Part shown: positions 2,011 through 60,310 of the stretch, piece by piece
Numbering within the stretch: the stretch's first letter is position 1
How the letters are laid out: each line of letters starts with the position of its first letter
Assembly (NCBI GenBank): GCA_964360565.1
Contig: CAYHXI010000001.1
Coordinates: 1-61,498, forward strand
Length of the DNA stretch: 61,498 nt
Direction of reading: 5' to 3'
DNA from: an uncultured Methanosarcinales archaeon
GTDB taxonomy: Archaea > Nanobdellota > Nanobdellia > Woesearchaeales > ARS49
The notes under the pieces: model-generated
Database searches by the model: none
What the model saw: the letters and a program-made list of their open reading frames with translations, nothing else
Told to the model about the DNA's origin: nothing
Made by a program: the position numbers and the translations under genes

Positions 2011-2132
2011 GAGTAGTATGTAGTCAGTGGTCTGTAGTCTTTGATTAATGGTTGGTGGCCTGTATTCAGTAGTGTAGATTTATTATCCACCAACAAATGA
2101 CTACTCACTACTTTCTACCGACCACTAACTAC
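2011..2132. repeat. GT/AC-word palindromic element, copy E1 (fills the nrdJ-cobO spacer)
   Basis: Outer stem 2020-2037 pairs with 2115-2132 (16 of 18 bp); inner stem 2050-2058 pairs with 2087-2095. Shares the 11-mer CTACCGACCAC (2115-2125) and the 14-mer TGACTACTCACTAC (2098-2111) with the other copies. Confidence 0.75.
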
Positions 2133-4333
2133 GCTAAGCTGCAAACTGAAAATCCACAGCTAGGACAGGTTGCGCATCCTTCGCTGAAAAAGATTTTACT
2201 GTTGCACTCGGGACAAAGGTCATCAGACTCTTGTTTTACAACAGATGGTTGTTGCACTTGCAAAGAAGGCTCGTTCTTTAATTTCTTTTTCTCTTCCAAA
2301 TTAATATTGAGCACTTGAACATCTTTGCTTCCATCTCTGTAAATAGTCACTCCTTTGCAGCCGAGTTTGTAAGCCAGCAAATAAACTTCTTCAACATCTT
2401 TTGTTGTTGCCCAATTAGGGAAGTTTACTGTTTTGCTAACCGCATTATCTGTAAATTCTTGGAATGCTGCCTGCATTCTGCAGTGCCAGTACGGAGAGAT
2501 GTCGTAAGATATTCTGAAAACATTTTTGACATCATCTGGAATCTCACCGAGGTCTTGAATTGTTCCTTTGTTAGCTATTTTTTTCATCAATTCTTCAGAG
2601 TAAAATCCTCTTTCTTTAGCTACTCTTTCAAAATATTCATTGATGTAAACTAATTCTTTTCCATCCATGACTACTTTTGTAAAGCAAAGCGCAAACAAAG
2701 GTTCTATTCCTGAACTGCAATCTGCTATCATACTAATAGTTCCAGTTGGAGCAATAGTTGTTCTCGTGCAATTTCTTATCGGAGTGCCTCCTTTGTATAT
2801 ACTTATGTCAAAGTTTGGGAATGGTCCTCTTACTTTTGCCAGCTCCATAGATGCTTTGTCTGCTTCAGTAGATACGAACAACATTAAATCTCTTGCAAGA
2901 TTTACTCCTTCTTCGCTGTCGTATTTTACTTTCATCTGGAATAAAAGATCTGCAAAGCCCATGATTCCTAAACCTATTCTTCTGTTAACTTTGCACATAT
3001 AATCTATCTGAGGCAAAGGATATTTGTTCATATCAATTACATTGTCTAAAAAGTGTATTGATGTGTGAACCATGCCTCTTAACTTTTCCCAGTTTACTTT
3101 GCCAGCATCATAAATTTTAGAAAGATTTATACTTCCAAGATTGCAAGCTTCGTAAGGAAGCAAAGGTTGCTCTCCGCAAGGATTTGTGCTTTCTATTTGT
3201 CCAAGAGTTGGAGTTGGGTTAGCTCTTGAATTATTTATTCTATCTATAAAAACAACTCCAGGGTCTCCAGTTTTCCAAGCCATTACAACAATTAAGTCGA
3301 ATACTTGTCTTGCACTTAATCTTTTCATAGCCACTCCAGTTTTAGGATGAACTAAATCATAGTCTTCTCCTTTTTCTAGAGCTTCCATGAATTTTTCTGT
3401 TATTGCTACAGAGATGTTGAAATTAAGAAGAGTTTTGTTATCTTCTTTCATAGTTATAAATTCTAAAATATCTGGATGGTCAACTCTTAGGATTCCCATA
3501 TTTGCTCCTCTTCGTTTACCTCCTTGCTTTACTACTTCGGTTGCGGCGTCAAAGACTTTCATGAAGCTTATAGGTCCTGAAGCAACTCCTTTAGTGCTTT
3601 TGACAATATCATTCTTAGGCCTCAATCTTGAGAAGCTGAATCCTGTTCCTCCACCGCTCTTGTGAATTATTGCAGTGTGTTTTACAGAATCAAATATTTC
3701 TTCCATACTGTCTCCAACTGGAAGAACAAAACATGCAGACAATTGCTGAAGCTCGTTTCCTGCATTCATTATTGTGGGAGTGTTGGGCAAGAATTCAAAG
3801 TTGCTTAAAATATCATAAAATTCTTTTTCAGTTCTTTGAACATCTTGACTGTATCTTGAATCTGCTTGAGAAAGATTATGCGCGATTCTAGTCATCATTT
3901 CCTCAGGACTTTCTATTATACTGCCAGACATATCTTTTTTCAAATATCTTTCTCTAAGAACTGTTAAAGAGTTCATAGATACTTTTAATGCAGTTGTTTT
4001 GCCGTCTAAAAGTGCAGACTTAGAATCTCTTAATTCTCTTCTTTTTTCTCTGTATAAAATGAATGTTTTTGCTGTTTTTGCGTGGCCGTTTTCCATTAAA
4101 ACTTTTTCTACCACATCTTGAACTTGTTCGACTGAAGGAACTTCATTAGGTTTAACATTTTTTTCTAACATCAATACAACTTTTCCAGCTAATTCTTCTG
4201 CTTTGATTCTATCTGAGCCGCCCACTGACTGGGCTGCTTTAAAGATTACTTCAGTTATTTTATCTTTCTGAAATGGAACAATATTTCCATCTCTTTTTTT
4301 TATTTGCGTTATTGTTGTTAATTCTTGAGTCAT
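2129..4333 (-). CDS. nrdJ: class II (adenosylcobalamin-dependent) ribonucleotide reductase
   Basis: N-terminal ATP-cone (IKKRDGNIVPFQKDKI). Catalytic core motifs LSACFVLPV, STNPCGEQPLLPYEACNLGS, APTGTIS. C-terminal CxxC...CxxC zinc ribbon. GGAGG 13 nt upstream of the ATG. Confidence 0.95.
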   Translation of the reverse strand: MTQELTTITQIKKRDGNIVPFQKDKITEVIFKAAQSVGGSDRIKAEELAGKVVLMLEKNVKPNEVPSVEQVQDVVEKVLMENGHAKTAKTFILYREKRRELRDSKSALLDGKTTALKVSMNSLTVLRERYLKKDMSGSIIESPEEMMTRIAHNLSQADSRYSQDVQRTEKEFYDILSNFEFLPNTPTIMNAGNELQQLSACFVLPVGDSMEEIFDSVKHTAIIHKSGGGTGFSFSRLRPKNDIVKSTKGVASGPISFMKVFDAATEVVKQGGKRRGANMGILRVDHPDILEFITMKEDNKTLLNFNISVAITEKFMEALEKGEDYDLVHPKTGVAMKRLSARQVFDLIVVMAWKTGDPGVVFIDRINNSRANPTPTLGQIESTNPCGEQPLLPYEACNLGSINLSKIYDAGKVNWEKLRGMVHTSIHFLDNVIDMNKYPLPQIDYMCKVNRRIGLGIMGFADLLFQMKVKYDSEEGVNLARDLMLFVSTEADKASMELAKVRGPFPNFDISIYKGGTPIRNCTRTTIAPTGTISMIADCSSGIEPLFALCFTKVVMDGKELVYINEYFERVAKERGFYSEELMKKIANKGTIQDLGEIPDDVKNVFRISYDISPYWHCRMQAAFQEFTDNAVSKTVNFPNWATTKDVEEVYLLAYKLGCKGVTIYRDGSKDVQVLNINLEEKKKLKNEPSLQVQQPSVVKQESDDLCPECNSKIFFSEGCATCPSCGFSVCSLA

Positions 4334-4353: not shown

Positions 4354-4431
4354 TTAGTCTGTGGTCAATAGTCTAGGGTCTGTAGCTTTTTGTAAATCTC
4401 TACTGACTACCGACCACTTACTATTAACTAC
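4354..4431. repeat. GT/AC-word palindromic element, copy E2 (nrdR-nrdJ junction, inside the nrdR reading frame)
   Basis: TAGTCTGTGGTC (4355-4366) pairs imperfectly with GACCACTTACTA (4412-4423). Contains CTACCGACCAC at 4407-4417. Confidence 0.7.
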
Positions 4432-4896
4432 TTTTTTCGGTTGCTGCAAGCTTTTAATCTCTGCAGTGAATTGTGAAACATCCTTGAATCTTCTGTAAAC
4501 TGAAGCGAATCTAATGTATGCAACTTCATCTATTTCTTTCAAGAAACGCATAACCATTTCTCCAATTAATTTACTTTTAACTTCAGATTGATCTAATCTT
4601 AGCAAAGAAGATTCTATTTTGTCAACTATTTCATCTATTTTTTCTCTTTTAACTGGACGTTTTTCGCAAGCTCTAATTAATCCTTTGAGAAGTTTTTCTC
4701 TTGAGAATTGTTCGATTCTTCCATCTTTTTTAATTACTGAAAGTCCGCTCATTTCAACTCTTTCGTAAGTTGTAAATCTTTTAGAGCAGTCCTCACACTC
4801 TCTTCGTCTTCTTATAGATTCAGAATTTGGAGTCAGCCTGCTGTCAAGCACTCTTGTTTCTTCATTTAAGCAAAATGGACATTTCAGTTTATTCAC
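4354..4896 (-). CDS. nrdR: transcriptional repressor NrdR (zinc ribbon + ATP-cone) with an unusual ~30-aa C-terminal tail
   Basis: KCPFCLNEETRVLDSRLTPNSESIRRRRECEDCSKRFTTYE zinc ribbon followed by ATP-cone VIKKDGRIEQFSREKL. The last ~30 codons are encoded by repeat element 4354-4431. Confidence 0.9.
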   Translation of the reverse strand: MNKLKCPFCLNEETRVLDSRLTPNSESIRRRRECEDCSKRFTTYERVEMSGLSVIKKDGRIEQFSREKLLKGLIRACEKRPVKREKIDEIVDKIESSLLRLDQSEVKSKLIGEMVMRFLKEIDEVAYIRFASVYRRFKDVSQFTAEIKSLQQPKKVVNSKWSVVSRDLQKATDPRLLTTD

Positions 4897-58308: not shown

Positions 58309-58309
58309 A

Positions 58310-58355
58310 TTATTTCCGAACTCACTTCGCTGCGCTCAGTTCATTCAGGAAATAA
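58310..58355. repeat. hairpin H4a abutting the helicase start codon
   Basis: TTATTTCC (58310-58317) pairs with GGAAATAA (58348-58355); inner GAACT pairs with AGTTC. Confidence 0.6.
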
Positions 58356-58388
58356 TAGTGTGGAAAAGCTTTTAAAACTTACCATCAT

Positions 58389-58432
58389 TAATTTTGCTGA
58401 ACGAACACTCAAAGTGTGAGTTCGCAAAATTA
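58389..58432. repeat. hairpin repeat H4b, ending 2 nt before the GT2 ATG
   Basis: TAATTTTGC (58389-58397) pairs with GCAAAATTA (58424-58432). Contains GTGAGTTCGCAA (58416-58427), identical to H1. Confidence 0.7.
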
Positions 58433-58434
58433 AA

Positions 58435-59142
58435 ATGAAACTATCAATAATTATTCCAGTCTACAACGAAGCAAACACTATAAAAGAGGTTCTTGATAGA
58501 GTTAATAATGTTGATTTATCAAGTTTAGGACTTAAAAAAGAAATCGTTGTAGTTGATGATGGAAGCAAAGATGGAACTCAAAATGTTCTGCTGGCGAACG
58601 CCCACGCTTATGCCAAGCTGATAATTCATGAAGTCAACAAAGGAAAAGGAAGCGCAATAAGAACAGGAATTGCGAATTCAACTGGAGACATAATCTTAAT
58701 TCAAGATGCAGATTTAGAATACAATCCTGACGAATACATTACAGTATTAACTCCAATCATTCACAAAAAAGCAGAAGTAGTATACGGCTCAAGATTTTTA
58801 TCACAGCCGCATTCAAGCAAACAAAAATGGGCAATACCCTCTCATTATTTAGGAAACAAATTTTTATCTATGTTAACTTCTCTTCTTTATTTCGAACCGA
58901 TAAGCGACATGGAAACATGCTACAAAGCATTCAAAAAAGAAGCACTTAATGGAATAACTCTTAAAGCAGAGCGTTTTGAATTCGAACCTGAAATTACTGC
59001 AAAAATACTTAAGAAAGGAATAAGAATTCTTGAAGTTCCAATCTCATACAAATCACGAGATTACAAAGAAGGCAAAAAGATTAAATGGAGTGATGGATTA
59101 ATTGCAGTGTGGACGTTGATTAAGTATAGGTTTGTGAATTAG
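58435..59142 (+). CDS. GT2 glycosyltransferase, dolichyl/polyprenyl-phosphate sugar synthase-like
   Basis: Paralog of 16848-17561. Shared blocks SIIIPVYNE, VVDDGSKD, GKGSAIRTG, LIQDADLE, AEVVYGSR, RFEF and EVPISY. Confidence 0.85.
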   Translation: MKLSIIIPVYNEANTIKEVLDRVNNVDLSSLGLKKEIVVVDDGSKDGTQNVLLANAHAYAKLIIHEVNKGKGSAIRTGIANSTGDIILIQDADLEYNPDEYITVLTPIIHKKAEVVYGSRFLSQPHSSKQKWAIPSHYLGNKFLSMLTSLLYFEPISDMETCYKAFKKEALNGITLKAERFEFEPEITAKILKKGIRILEVPISYKSRDYKEGKKIKWSDGLIAVWTLIKYRFVN

Positions 59143-59243
59143 TTAGTGGTTAGTAGCGGGTGGTCGGTAGTCTGTTGATAACTATTTACTGCTTACCACA
59201 GACTACTTCCAACTAACTACTGACTACTCACTACCAGCTACAT
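59140..59243. repeat. GT/AC-word palindromic element, copy E3
   Basis: GTAGTCTGT (59167-59175) pairs with ACAGACTAC (59198-59206). Contains GTGGTCGGTAG (59160-59170, reverse complement of the shared 11-mer) and TGACTACTCACTAC (59221-59234). Confidence 0.75.
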
Positions 59244-59278
59244 ACTAATTTAAAAACATCCCTCTCCAATTCTCACAT

Positions 59279-60310
59279 ATGAACTTTCAAAATCTAAAAA
59301 ACGTCGAAGGCCCTCAATTTTATCTAGATTTAGCGTTCCATAGAGCAAGCCGGCAAACTTCTGAATTAAGAGGAAAACTTAAAGGAGGCGGGGCATCATC
59401 ACTGCAGAAAGCAAGAACATTCGAATTTGAAAGAGTTAATATTGTTTATATGACTTTAAGAGAATCTTTTAGAGAAATATTGAAAGGATTCCCTCGTCTT
59501 GAAAGCTTAGACCCTTTTTATCTAGAGCTCGTTAAATGTACAATTGATTATGACCAAGTAAAACTTTCTTTAGGAGGAGTGACTTGGTTTATACAACAGT
59601 TAGATAAAATTTATATCGAGTCTAAAATAAAAATAAAGAGCTGTAAAGATATTGGCACAATAAGCAGATATAGAATAGAGTTCTACGGCAGAATTTCTTC
59701 TTTCGTAAAACAAATAAAAGACCGTTTAGAATATTTGGAAGTTGCTAGAAAAAAAATGAAAGAGTTTCCTCCTGTAAAAACATCTATTCCAACAATTGTT
59801 ATTGCAGGATTTCCAAATGTTGGAAAAACAACTTTGCTGAGAGCATTAACCGGCTCTGAACCGAAAATCGCAGATTATCCTTTCACCACTCAAAAACTAA
59901 TGATTGGATATAATATAGACAAAACTTTGCAGTTCATAGATACTCCAGGTCTTCTAGATAGGCCTTTGCAGAAGAGAAATAAAATAGAATTACAAGCAAT
60001 ACTTGCATTAAAATATTTGGCCAAAGTAATATTTTTCGTATTCGACCCGACTGAAACATGCGGATATACTTGGGAAGAGCAGAAAAATCTTCTTTCAGAT
60101 ATTCAGAAAAATTTTGATGCTGAAATACAAATAGTATTCAACAAAACTGACATCGCTGAAAAAGAAATTGTTGAGAAAAGAAAGAAAGAATTCGACAATG
60201 TGGTTGTAATAAGTGCTGAAAAAAATACGGGAACTGATGAATTAAATAAAATTGTAGAAAAATTCATAGAAATTGAAGTAAAAGAAAAAGAAATGGATGA
60301 AGTGGAATAA
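59279..60310 (+). CDS. NOG1-family GTPase (archaeal/eukaryotic type)
   Basis: NOG1-like N-terminal domain, then G1 GFPNVGKTT, G3 DTPG and G4 NKTD. TATA-like box 59248-59256 lies 22 nt before the ATG. Confidence 0.85.
   Translation: MNFQNLKNVEGPQFYLDLAFHRASRQTSELRGKLKGGGASSLQKARTFEFERVNIVYMTLRESFREILKGFPRLESLDPFYLELVKCTIDYDQVKLSLGGVTWFIQQLDKIYIESKIKIKSCKDIGTISRYRIEFYGRISSFVKQIKDRLEYLEVARKKMKEFPPVKTSIPTIVIAGFPNVGKTTLLRALTGSEPKIADYPFTTQKLMIGYNIDKTLQFIDTPGLLDRPLQKRNKIELQAILALKYLAKVIFFVFDPTETCGYTWEEQKNLLSDIQKNFDAEIQIVFNKTDIAEKEIVEKRKKEFDNVVVISAEKNTGTDELNKIVEKFIEIEVKEKEMDEVE

Follow-up and report, generated by a model that had tools for sequence, protein, structure and literature searches.

Several families of tandem heptanucleotides localised near the ends of genes have been described in bacteria. 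The units GGGAATC of Xanthomonas and GGGGA(C/T)T of Nostoc PCC 7120 lie with their G-rich strand in sense at up to 50 bp from a stop codon, or overlapping it, and in antisense just upstream of open reading frames (ORFs); about four units are preferred and 70-75 convergent pairs are present per genome (PMC4692102). These repeats are lineage-specific, differing between close species, and the formation of G-quadruplexes has been proposed for them; in the study of Rehm et al. 2015, transcripts started or stopped at the repeats more often than at controls (PMC4692102). Two kinds of heptanucleotide tandem array, the cyanobacterial short tandemly repeated repetitive sequences (STRR) and the long simple sequence repeats (LSSR), are described, in the summary given in PMC4679880, as mostly intergenic and sporadic, slippage being thought to favour the 7-nt unit. 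The TAACTGA repeats of marine Beggiatoaceae, cyanobacteria and Bacteroidetes form about 170 intergenic sets of 2-6 copies each, with a patchy distribution (PMC4679880). Here we describe three elements (E1, E2 and E3) found in a stretch of 61,498 nt, referred to below as the window, which corresponds to positions 1-61,498 of contig CAYHXI010000001.1 of assembly GCA_964360565.1 from an uncultured archaeon of the Woesearchaeales. The three elements are members of a genome-wide, lineage-restricted and fast-turnover family of degenerate heptamer arrays localised at gene boundaries.

E1, E2 and E3 occupy positions 2011-2132, 4354-4431 and 59140-59243, as an earlier sequence-only reading of the window had given them. 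The exact words by which that reading had related the elements to each other were found where it had placed them and far above chance, as judged by 100 dinucleotide-preserving shuffles: CTACCGACCAC at 2115-2125 and 4407-4417 on the plus strand and at 59160-59170 on the minus strand (three matches versus none in the shuffles), and TGACTACTCACTAC at 2098-2111 and 59221-59234 (two matches versus none). The 11-mer CTACCGACCAC occurred 11 times in the whole genome, with approximately 0.2 occurrences expected. The small common vocabulary that had been noticed in the elements was real and could be refined to a strict periodicity of 7 nt.

The arms were counted across the assembly by scoring GACYAC at fixed spacing, an arm being counted if it had three or more units and 15 or more of the 18 possible matches. 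This yielded 111 arms with period 7, compared with 0-1 at the control periods 5, 6, 8, 9 and 10. The profile of 498 units on the AC strand was N (G.48, A.26), A.90, C.97, Y (T.57, C.40), A.98, C.85 and H. The unit is then a core ACYAC plus two free positions (DGTRGTY on the other strand, with GTRGT as its core). Arms had three (18 arms), four (39), five (44) or six to eight units (10), and were distributed in 83 loci on 56 of the 156 contigs, 23 of them composite, 32 with a lone GT arm and 28 with a lone AC arm. The sequence-only reading had allowed that no further copies might exist in the genome, in which case the elements could have been a local duplication; these 83 loci show otherwise. 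Single arms thus made up 60 of the 83 loci, and most of them had no cryptic partner arm. Loci ranged from 55 to 233 nt in size, with unrelated interiors. The family is dispersed and mostly non-coding, most loci overlapping an ORF by just 0-18 nt, and about 3% of genes carried an array. By eye, 4 of the 83 loci were less than 300 nt from a contig end, a zone that makes up about 6% of the genome, giving no enrichment at contig ends.

Positions 1, 4 and 7 of the unit were variable, and the arrays were not near-perfect simple sequence repeats (SSRs). Identical neighbouring units were observed 9 times against 12 expected, and at the variable positions neighbours were less alike than random pairs (0.346 vs 0.382). 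Neighbouring units were therefore not unusually alike, which is not what recently slipped perfect repeats would show, and recent slippage was rejected as the source of the arrays. The array edge was sharp on the gene side and slightly softer toward the centre of the spacer. None of the 111 arms contained four GGG runs, which excludes a canonical G-quadruplex.

The arrays had a constant polarity: whichever side of a spacer an arm was on, its G/T-rich strand always ran 5' to 3' away from the flanking gene and into that spacer. Read in GT sense, 51 of the 111 arms began between -10 and +20 nt from the end of a gene of the same sense, and a further 14 began 0-1 nt from the gene's own stop. Overlaps between GT arms and ORFs peaked at 4, 11 and 18 nt (19, 4 and 5 cases), which places the end of the ORF at the TAG of the first, second or third unit. 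Among lone arms, 34 of 51 abutted a 3' end in GT sense, whereas 6.3 were expected if orientation were random and every position in the spacer equally likely (p = 2e-19). In AC sense, arms ended in three ways: with an ATG or a tRNA 5' end 1-3 nt further on (cobO, another gene, tRNA-Leu, tRNA-Cys and tRNA-Thr), with a Shine-Dalgarno (SD) sequence and ATG at 8-21 nt (about ten cases, nrdJ included), or with a TATA-like box at 37-70 nt. The flanking genes were ordinary and unrelated, encoding dihydrofolate reductase, dCTP deaminase, adenine phosphoribosyltransferase, an aminoacyl-tRNA synthetase, SPOUT, NMD3 and GT2 proteins as well as tRNAs, and no gene class was enriched among 10 neighbouring proteins.

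Two observations concern the tRNA genes in their own right. Degenerate ACNAC heptamers, with an ACGAC variant among them (AACGACT AACGATT AACGACG), filled the DNA from the TATA box to the mature tRNA 5' end upstream of approximately 12 of the 29 tRNA genes. A conserved module of about 50 nt, TTTGTCGTGGGATTGAAGCAAAGCGAAAATCCCACTTGACTGCTTTTGATCAA, with the hairpin GTGGGATT...AATCCCAC, was localised 0-30 nt behind at least nine tRNA genes (contigs C3, C6, C13, C29, C57, C59, C89, C106 and C151).

The two senses of the arrays differed in the translation signals that they carry. GT sense contained 10.5 stop and 9.1 start codons per 100 nt as well as SD-like words, and stops were present in at least two frames in 96 of the 111 arms, so that an array in this sense can lie against a stop codon, or take its place, without lengthening the protein. 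AC sense had no SD-like words, and per 100 nt its stops numbered 4.1 and its starts 0.3; being nearly devoid of starts and of such words, it is inert in a 5' leader.

The sequence-only reading had described each of E1-E3 as a long imperfect hairpin with a GT-rich left half and an AC-rich right half, and the computed folds agreed: the 5' half was rich in GT and the 3' half rich in AC, with energies of -24 to -43.5 kcal/mol and z of -2.0 to -5.1. In the genome, neighbouring arms followed the order GT then AC 22 times and AC then GT once, and it is this order that produces hairpins. Partner arms, however, were not fitted to each other: identity was 0.70 for an arm with its own partner vs 0.75 with non-partners, and the duplex energy per nt was -0.97 for own partners vs -1.08 for non-partners. 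Partner arms were therefore not extra complementary, and the covariation that the earlier reading had suggested looking for did not appear in this comparison. Folding energy of the sense minus the antisense strand had a mean of -0.3 kcal/mol in nine co-directional spacers, showing no bias toward the sense strand. The hairpin is a by-product of two facing, independent arrays and not a selected helix.

In the window, E1 and E2 lie among three genes of the minus strand whose identities were confirmed with NCBIfam: nrdR (GTG at 4896, stop TAA at 4354-4356), nrdJ (4333-2129, with ATG at 4331-4333 and stop TAG at 2129-2131) and cobO/cobA (2010-1399, with ATG at 2008-2010). E1 had been said to fill the nrdJ-cobO spacer, to cover the nrdJ stop and to come close to the cobO ATG with no SD sequence, and all of this was borne out. 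It makes up the entire 118-nt spacer (2011-2128), and the nrdJ stop is inside its first mRNA-strand unit (AACTAC on the plus strand), giving an overlap of +4 with the ORF end. The gene-proximal arm (2099..2132, minus strand) has five GTRGTYN units, the mRNA strand reading GTAGTTAGTGGTCGGTAG..., and is followed by a centre (2047..2098, minus) in which an AT-rich loop accompanies the inner hairpin TTGGTGG...CCACCAA. The distal arm (2013..2046, minus) is AC-sense on the mRNA (...GACTACAGACCACTGACTACATACTAC), and the cobO ATG follows 2 nt after it with no SD sequence.

E2 is at the nrdR-nrdJ junction, as had been proposed, but it is not strictly intergenic, since the nrdR frame traverses it. Its GT-sense arm (4398..4431, minus strand) is an in-frame part of the C-terminal tail of NrdR (VVNSKWSVVS...), and its AC-sense arm (4354..4380, minus) ends in GACTAA, the TAA of which (4354-4356) stops nrdR. 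The last 26 or so nrdR codons (VVNSKWSVVSRDLQKATDPRLLTTD) together with the TAA stop are thus E2 sequence. The NrdR model TIGR00244 covers residues 4-150 of the 180-aa ORF, and 30 residues lie beyond its end (nrdR 3' end, 4354-4445). Downstream of the AC arm, 20 nt further on, are the SD sequence GAGGAGG and the nrdJ ATG.

E3 is on the plus strand. The stop TAG of a GT2 glycosyltransferase gene (59140-59142) is contained in a degenerate unit, TTAGTT, directly before the GT arm of E3 (59143..59179); the arm as detected (59146-59179) starts 3 nt past this stop. A weak inner AC arm (59187-59206) and an outer one (59215-59241) pair with the GT arm (-43.5 kcal/mol). The TATA-like box TAATTTAAAAACATCC (59246..59261, plus strand) belongs to the gene of a NOG1-type GTPase, with ATG at 59279; it was kept in relatives with E3 as well as in relatives without it, and it forms the right limit of the element.

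The source assembly is a Woesearchaeota metagenome-assembled genome (MAG) of 1.46 Mb and 32.9% GC on 156 scaffolds, many of them with 100-N gaps, and about 89% of it is coding. A simple pattern search of the whole assembly did not find signature motifs of 16S or 23S, and it is probably a MAG without rRNA genes. By comparison of NrdJ, its closest named relative is a Candidatus Woesearchaeota MAG from groundwater. The strict pattern (GACYACN)x3 gave 61 matches in the source genome, none in the reversed control and none in 40 relatives, and across the phylum it had hits in only 2 of 400 genomes. With the relaxed pattern (ACYACNN)x4, the source genome gave 128 matches and the controls 0-1. In 300 other genomes of the order, this relaxed pattern matched 19, 7, 4, 3 and 2 times in five genomes that represent five other families, and once in four more; the distribution in the order was thus sporadic, with any match in ten of 301 genomes, the source included, and more than one in six. 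G149, a genome of about 50% GC from another Woesearchaeales family, had (GTRGTTN)n arrays which, in GT sense, likewise began at a stop codon or over it. As a separate feature of G149, a conserved repeat of about 110 nt, reading ...GCAGTGCACGAAGCCAGAC...CCCGAAAGGGG...CACAGCCTGCTA, was found in five of nine loci (L028, L030-L033), directly behind an array or shortly downstream of it. The reverse-complement word AGCAGGCTGACTCTTCGTG was also present in L028, L030 and L034-L036, and a search of seven G149 loci against Rfam at E <= 0.1 gave no match.

Comparison with relatives showed how quickly the elements change. At the nrdJ-cobO junction, the spacer was 2 nt in L042 (NrdJ 67% identical) and 25 nt and element-free in L052 (CobO 71%). 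L051 (CobO 90%) had a hairpin of 83 nt that belongs to this family but is built of other units, apart from a shared last unit (CATACTACTC-ATG); the E1 centre segment was missing from it. In L050 (CobO 90%) the spacer was 192 nt, with a variant heptamer (GTGTTAG... / ...CTAACAC CTAATAC) forming its outer arms and with two inner palindromes. The E3 site was an 18-nt spacer in L061 (71%), 57 nt with no heptamer hairpin and an unchanged promoter in L059 (92%), and a hairpin of about 120 nt with different units in L060 (85%). At 85-90% protein identity, the units and the length of orthologous elements thus differed; they were identical in the 99% relative, a contig from the Hainich aquifer (L044) in which E2 and the NrdR tail were unchanged. 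Two further relatives with NrdJ 71-77% identical (L001 and L043) were uninformative, as their lineage is richer in GC and their synteny differs. The spacers of the relatives indicate that the elements were inserted into tight junctions and have been gained, lost and rewritten among close relatives, while the flanking coding sequence and promoter stayed conserved.

A different kind of element was present near the E3 locus. The divergent spacer between the helicase and GT2 genes (58309-58434, 126 nt) has the hairpins ATTATTTCC...GGAAATAAT and TTTTGCTGAACGAAC...GTGAGTTCGCAAAA, the latter belonging to a family of TTCGCAA words. Orthologous spacers were 55-58 nt in L059 (92%) and L061 (71%), and both hairpins were missing from them, suggesting that the TTCGCAA-word family was inserted too.

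We estimate a probability of about 0.5 that the arrays are non-autonomous repeat DNA which is kept where its position and orientation suit expression. Arrays would arise in spacers or invade them, they would be transcribed together with their neighbours, and they would survive only at places and in orientations that leave expression undisturbed. Behind a gene, the mRNA would read GURGUY from the stop onward, and before a gene or tRNA it would read ACYAC up to the SD sequence, the start or the promoter; arms on both sides of a spacer would pair into a long imperfect hairpin simply by juxtaposition. In the nrdJ-cobO spacer, such a hairpin would bring the stop and the next start back together, in which case a 118-nt insertion into a coupled junction of 2-25 nt could be tolerated, and the hairpin may keep nrdJ and cobO translationally coupled. 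Effects on the mRNA, such as the stem between the nrdJ stop and the cobO start or 3' stem-loops, would be incidental.

Several results weigh against this proposal. Abutment on the stop codon persisted where the spacer had 90-430 nt of slack on its other side, so that a filter acting through translation signals fits the orientation of the arrays and not their exact contact with stops in slack spacers. The arrays of G149 and the bacterial units, which are free of stop codons, imply that this filter is not the whole cause of the polarity. The core positions were 90-98% conserved while positions 1 and 7 varied freely, and a conserved core with unlike neighbours would be unlike the neutral decay of slipped repeats and would fit selection on a periodic motif. 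Furthermore, no mechanism of spread was identified.

A serious though less likely alternative is that the arrays are a polar boundary signal in their own right. A factor acting in trans, probably an oligomer, would read the periodic GURGU on the nascent RNA or the non-template strand; by termination, by insulation or by protection of the 3' end, it would mark where a transcription or translation unit ends. Polymerases entering the spacer from the other side would meet the same signal in the AC arms, and hairpins would be two such signals back to back. A signal of this kind would account for arrays that start exactly at stops even in long spacers, for a conserved core with free spacer bases and no slippage signature, and for the retention of arrays in a genome that is about 89% coding, but it would hardly be missing from about 97% of the genomes in the same order, nor would the array be gone or absent, with its promoter kept, in L059, the closest relative found for the E3 site. 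The same rule recurs in the distant family of G149, with its other GC content, and in the bacterial heptamer families (PMC4692102), which points to function, whereas the lack of any enriched gene class, the small share of genes with an array (about 3%) and the lack of a candidate factor, as neither Y1_Tnp nor RVT_1 tracks the arrays, point away from it. We think it unlikely, in addition, that heptad arrays with the G/T strand directed into the spacer are a boundary signal common to both domains that acts without G-quadruplexes, a conserved component of transcription or RNA decay reading a periodic GURGU-type motif on the nascent RNA or the non-template strand and so halting or insulating, with no need of oligo-T, polymerases that come out of a gene on either side. 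If this were true, periodicity and polarity, and not G-quadruplex folding or slippage, would be the selected feature, and the present family, which lacks G-tracts and whose neighbouring units are not identical, would be the clearest evidence for it.

The sequence-only reading had suggested a family like repetitive extragenic palindromes (REPs) or MITEs (miniature transposable elements with inverted repeats). It was right in that a dispersed intergenic repeat family exists, with 83 loci, but by definition this family is neither. BLAST searches with E1-E3 gave just word matches of 14-36 nt and not the family-wide consensus expected of a REP, and copies differed in length and in unit order; unlike MITEs, the loci had no conserved interior and were not similar in size (55 to 233 nt). 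REP heads begin with GTAG or GTGG, as do the heptamer units. A true mobile element, that is, a non-autonomous transposon of the MITE or REPIN (REP doublet) type with the GT arrays as terminal inverted repeats and the lone arms as half-elements, would explain inverted arms of constant polarity, insertion into a junction that was previously 2-25 nt and presence or absence among relatives. We consider it improbable, because no full-length consensus or common length unites any two copies, an element's own arms resemble each other no more than they resemble those of other elements, and lone arms, which are more numerous than hairpins, tend to lie at 3' ends. No target-site duplication was visible at E1 or E3, and L059 carries other sequence at the E3 site, with no clean empty site. 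The only gene resembling a REP-associated tyrosine transposase (RAYT) in the assembly, a lone Y1 transposase gene of family PF01797 (C8:12551-13255, about 235 aa), lies between copies of a different palindrome, contig C8 has no heptamer arms, and Y1_Tnp does not track the arrays, being present in four of six array-bearing and five of 12 array-free genomes (18 genomes compared); a link with RAYT was thus rejected. Reverse transcriptases were rejected as well, since RVT_1 was present in four of six array-bearing vs one of 12 array-free genomes, yet it was missing in G149, the second-richest in arrays, and the enzyme of the source genome has motifs of the type found in diversity-generating retroelements (DGRs). 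An attC site of an integron, with the core order R''(RYYYAAC)...R'(GTTRRRY) behind the ORFs of contiguous cassettes, was also discarded, on arm order and genomic layout and with no search for IntI: the arms follow the order GT then AC, the reverse of attC, and the loci are scattered among housekeeping genes.

The genes just mentioned have features of their own. The Y1 gene on C8 (C8:12200-13400) is flanked on both sides by AAAGACAGTCTTwAATAAGACTGTCTTT, a classic RAYT/REP layout in a DPANN archaeon, and similar palindromes, AAAGACAT...ATGTCTTT, are present inside the nrdJ-cobO spacer of L050. The reverse transcriptase genes (C153:27-1972 and C130:136-645) have the DGR-type motifs NLTSQFFANIYLNELD and YVDDF; both contigs are short, the copy on C153 is split into two ORFs and the copy on C130 is partial.

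It is very improbable that the arrays are scars of DNA-break healing, in which the 3' ends at a double-strand break in a spacer would be extended with degenerate G/T-rich heptads, in the manner of telomeres, by a templated or slipping polymerase and then joined head-to-head, one-sided extension leaving lone arms. A single mechanism would then cover the GT-then-AC order, the independence of the arms and the fidelity of the motif without identity between neighbours, and also the sharp gene-side edge, the softer central edge and the ORFs that end in an array; against it, no enzyme emerged as a candidate, the reverse transcriptases being apparently of the DGR type and missing from G149, and a bias of lone arms to 3' over 5' gene ends is not predicted. 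To our knowledge, arrays formed by break healing have no prokaryotic precedent.

Finally, the genome-wide census effectively refutes the proposal of the sequence-only reading that the hairpins are a structured RNA module inside the nrd operon, and we give practically no weight to an operon-specific cis-regulatory RNA, similar to a riboswitch or an attenuator, for nrdR-nrdJ-cobO: nrdJ is flanked by two copies and both fold, but 80 other loci stand beside unrelated genes and tRNAs, the whole window had no Rfam match at the gathering threshold, there was no known family or covarying helix, no excess of partner complementarity, no sense-fold bias and no single gene family or pathway, and relatives with 67-71% identical proteins have an element-free nrdJ-cobO junction of 2-25 nt. 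Mimicry of SD or anti-SD sequences is a remark at most: GGUGGUC could pair with a 16S 3' end, but only a minority of the units fit, and the assembly showed no rRNA signature motifs.

The family described here is an archaeal variant of the bacterial heptamer repeats at gene ends, without G-quadruplex potential. It shares with the repeats of Xanthomonas and Nostoc the tandem units of 7 nt, the genome-wide and non-coding distribution, the arrays of about four units and the convergent inverted pairs. It differs in that those units are near-perfect SSRs with GGG tracts, whereas here a 5-nt core is kept and neighbours differ, in that the GT strand has stop and start codons, unlike GGGAATC, and in that the host is an archaeon. 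With no arm carrying four GGG runs, the G-quadruplex explanation of Rehm et al. is not applicable to it. The STRR and LSSR arrays (Mrazek et al. 2007), as far as the summary in PMC4679880 describes them, are long and nearly perfect, and the arrays in this study are short, degenerate and polar. The TAACTGA repeats share a strong orientation bias to the neighbouring gene and a heptamer unit bearing stop codons (MacGregor 2015), and differ from the present family, which lies mainly at stop codons and often forms inverted pairs. REPs, the bacterial interspersed mosaic elements (BIMEs) built from them and REPINs are also imperfect extragenic palindromes in operon junctions and at 3' ends that can form 3' stem-loops on the mRNA; a REP, however, is a single palindrome of about 35 nt with a family consensus that flanks RAYT genes, whereas the arms here are arrays with no full-length consensus. 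The repetitive hairpin-forming elements of organelle genomes, such as sponge mitochondria (PMC2800124), and the palindromic elements of Rickettsia likewise invade the spacers, and now and then the gene ends, of compact genomes and turn over rapidly, but they are not known to consist of periodic heptamers or to have a polarity.

A groundwater archaeon of the DPANN group thus follows the positional rule of bacterial heptamers, and the rule spans domains. Units without a canonical G-quadruplex weaken the quadruplex account of the bacterial repeats and point instead to a more general cause, either a shared filter on expression signals or a shared boundary function. For annotation, these arrays supply stop codons, add short C-terminal tails such as the 26 or so codons of NrdR, and fill operon junctions. 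For evolution, they are a visible and fast-changing component of genomes that are otherwise streamlined.

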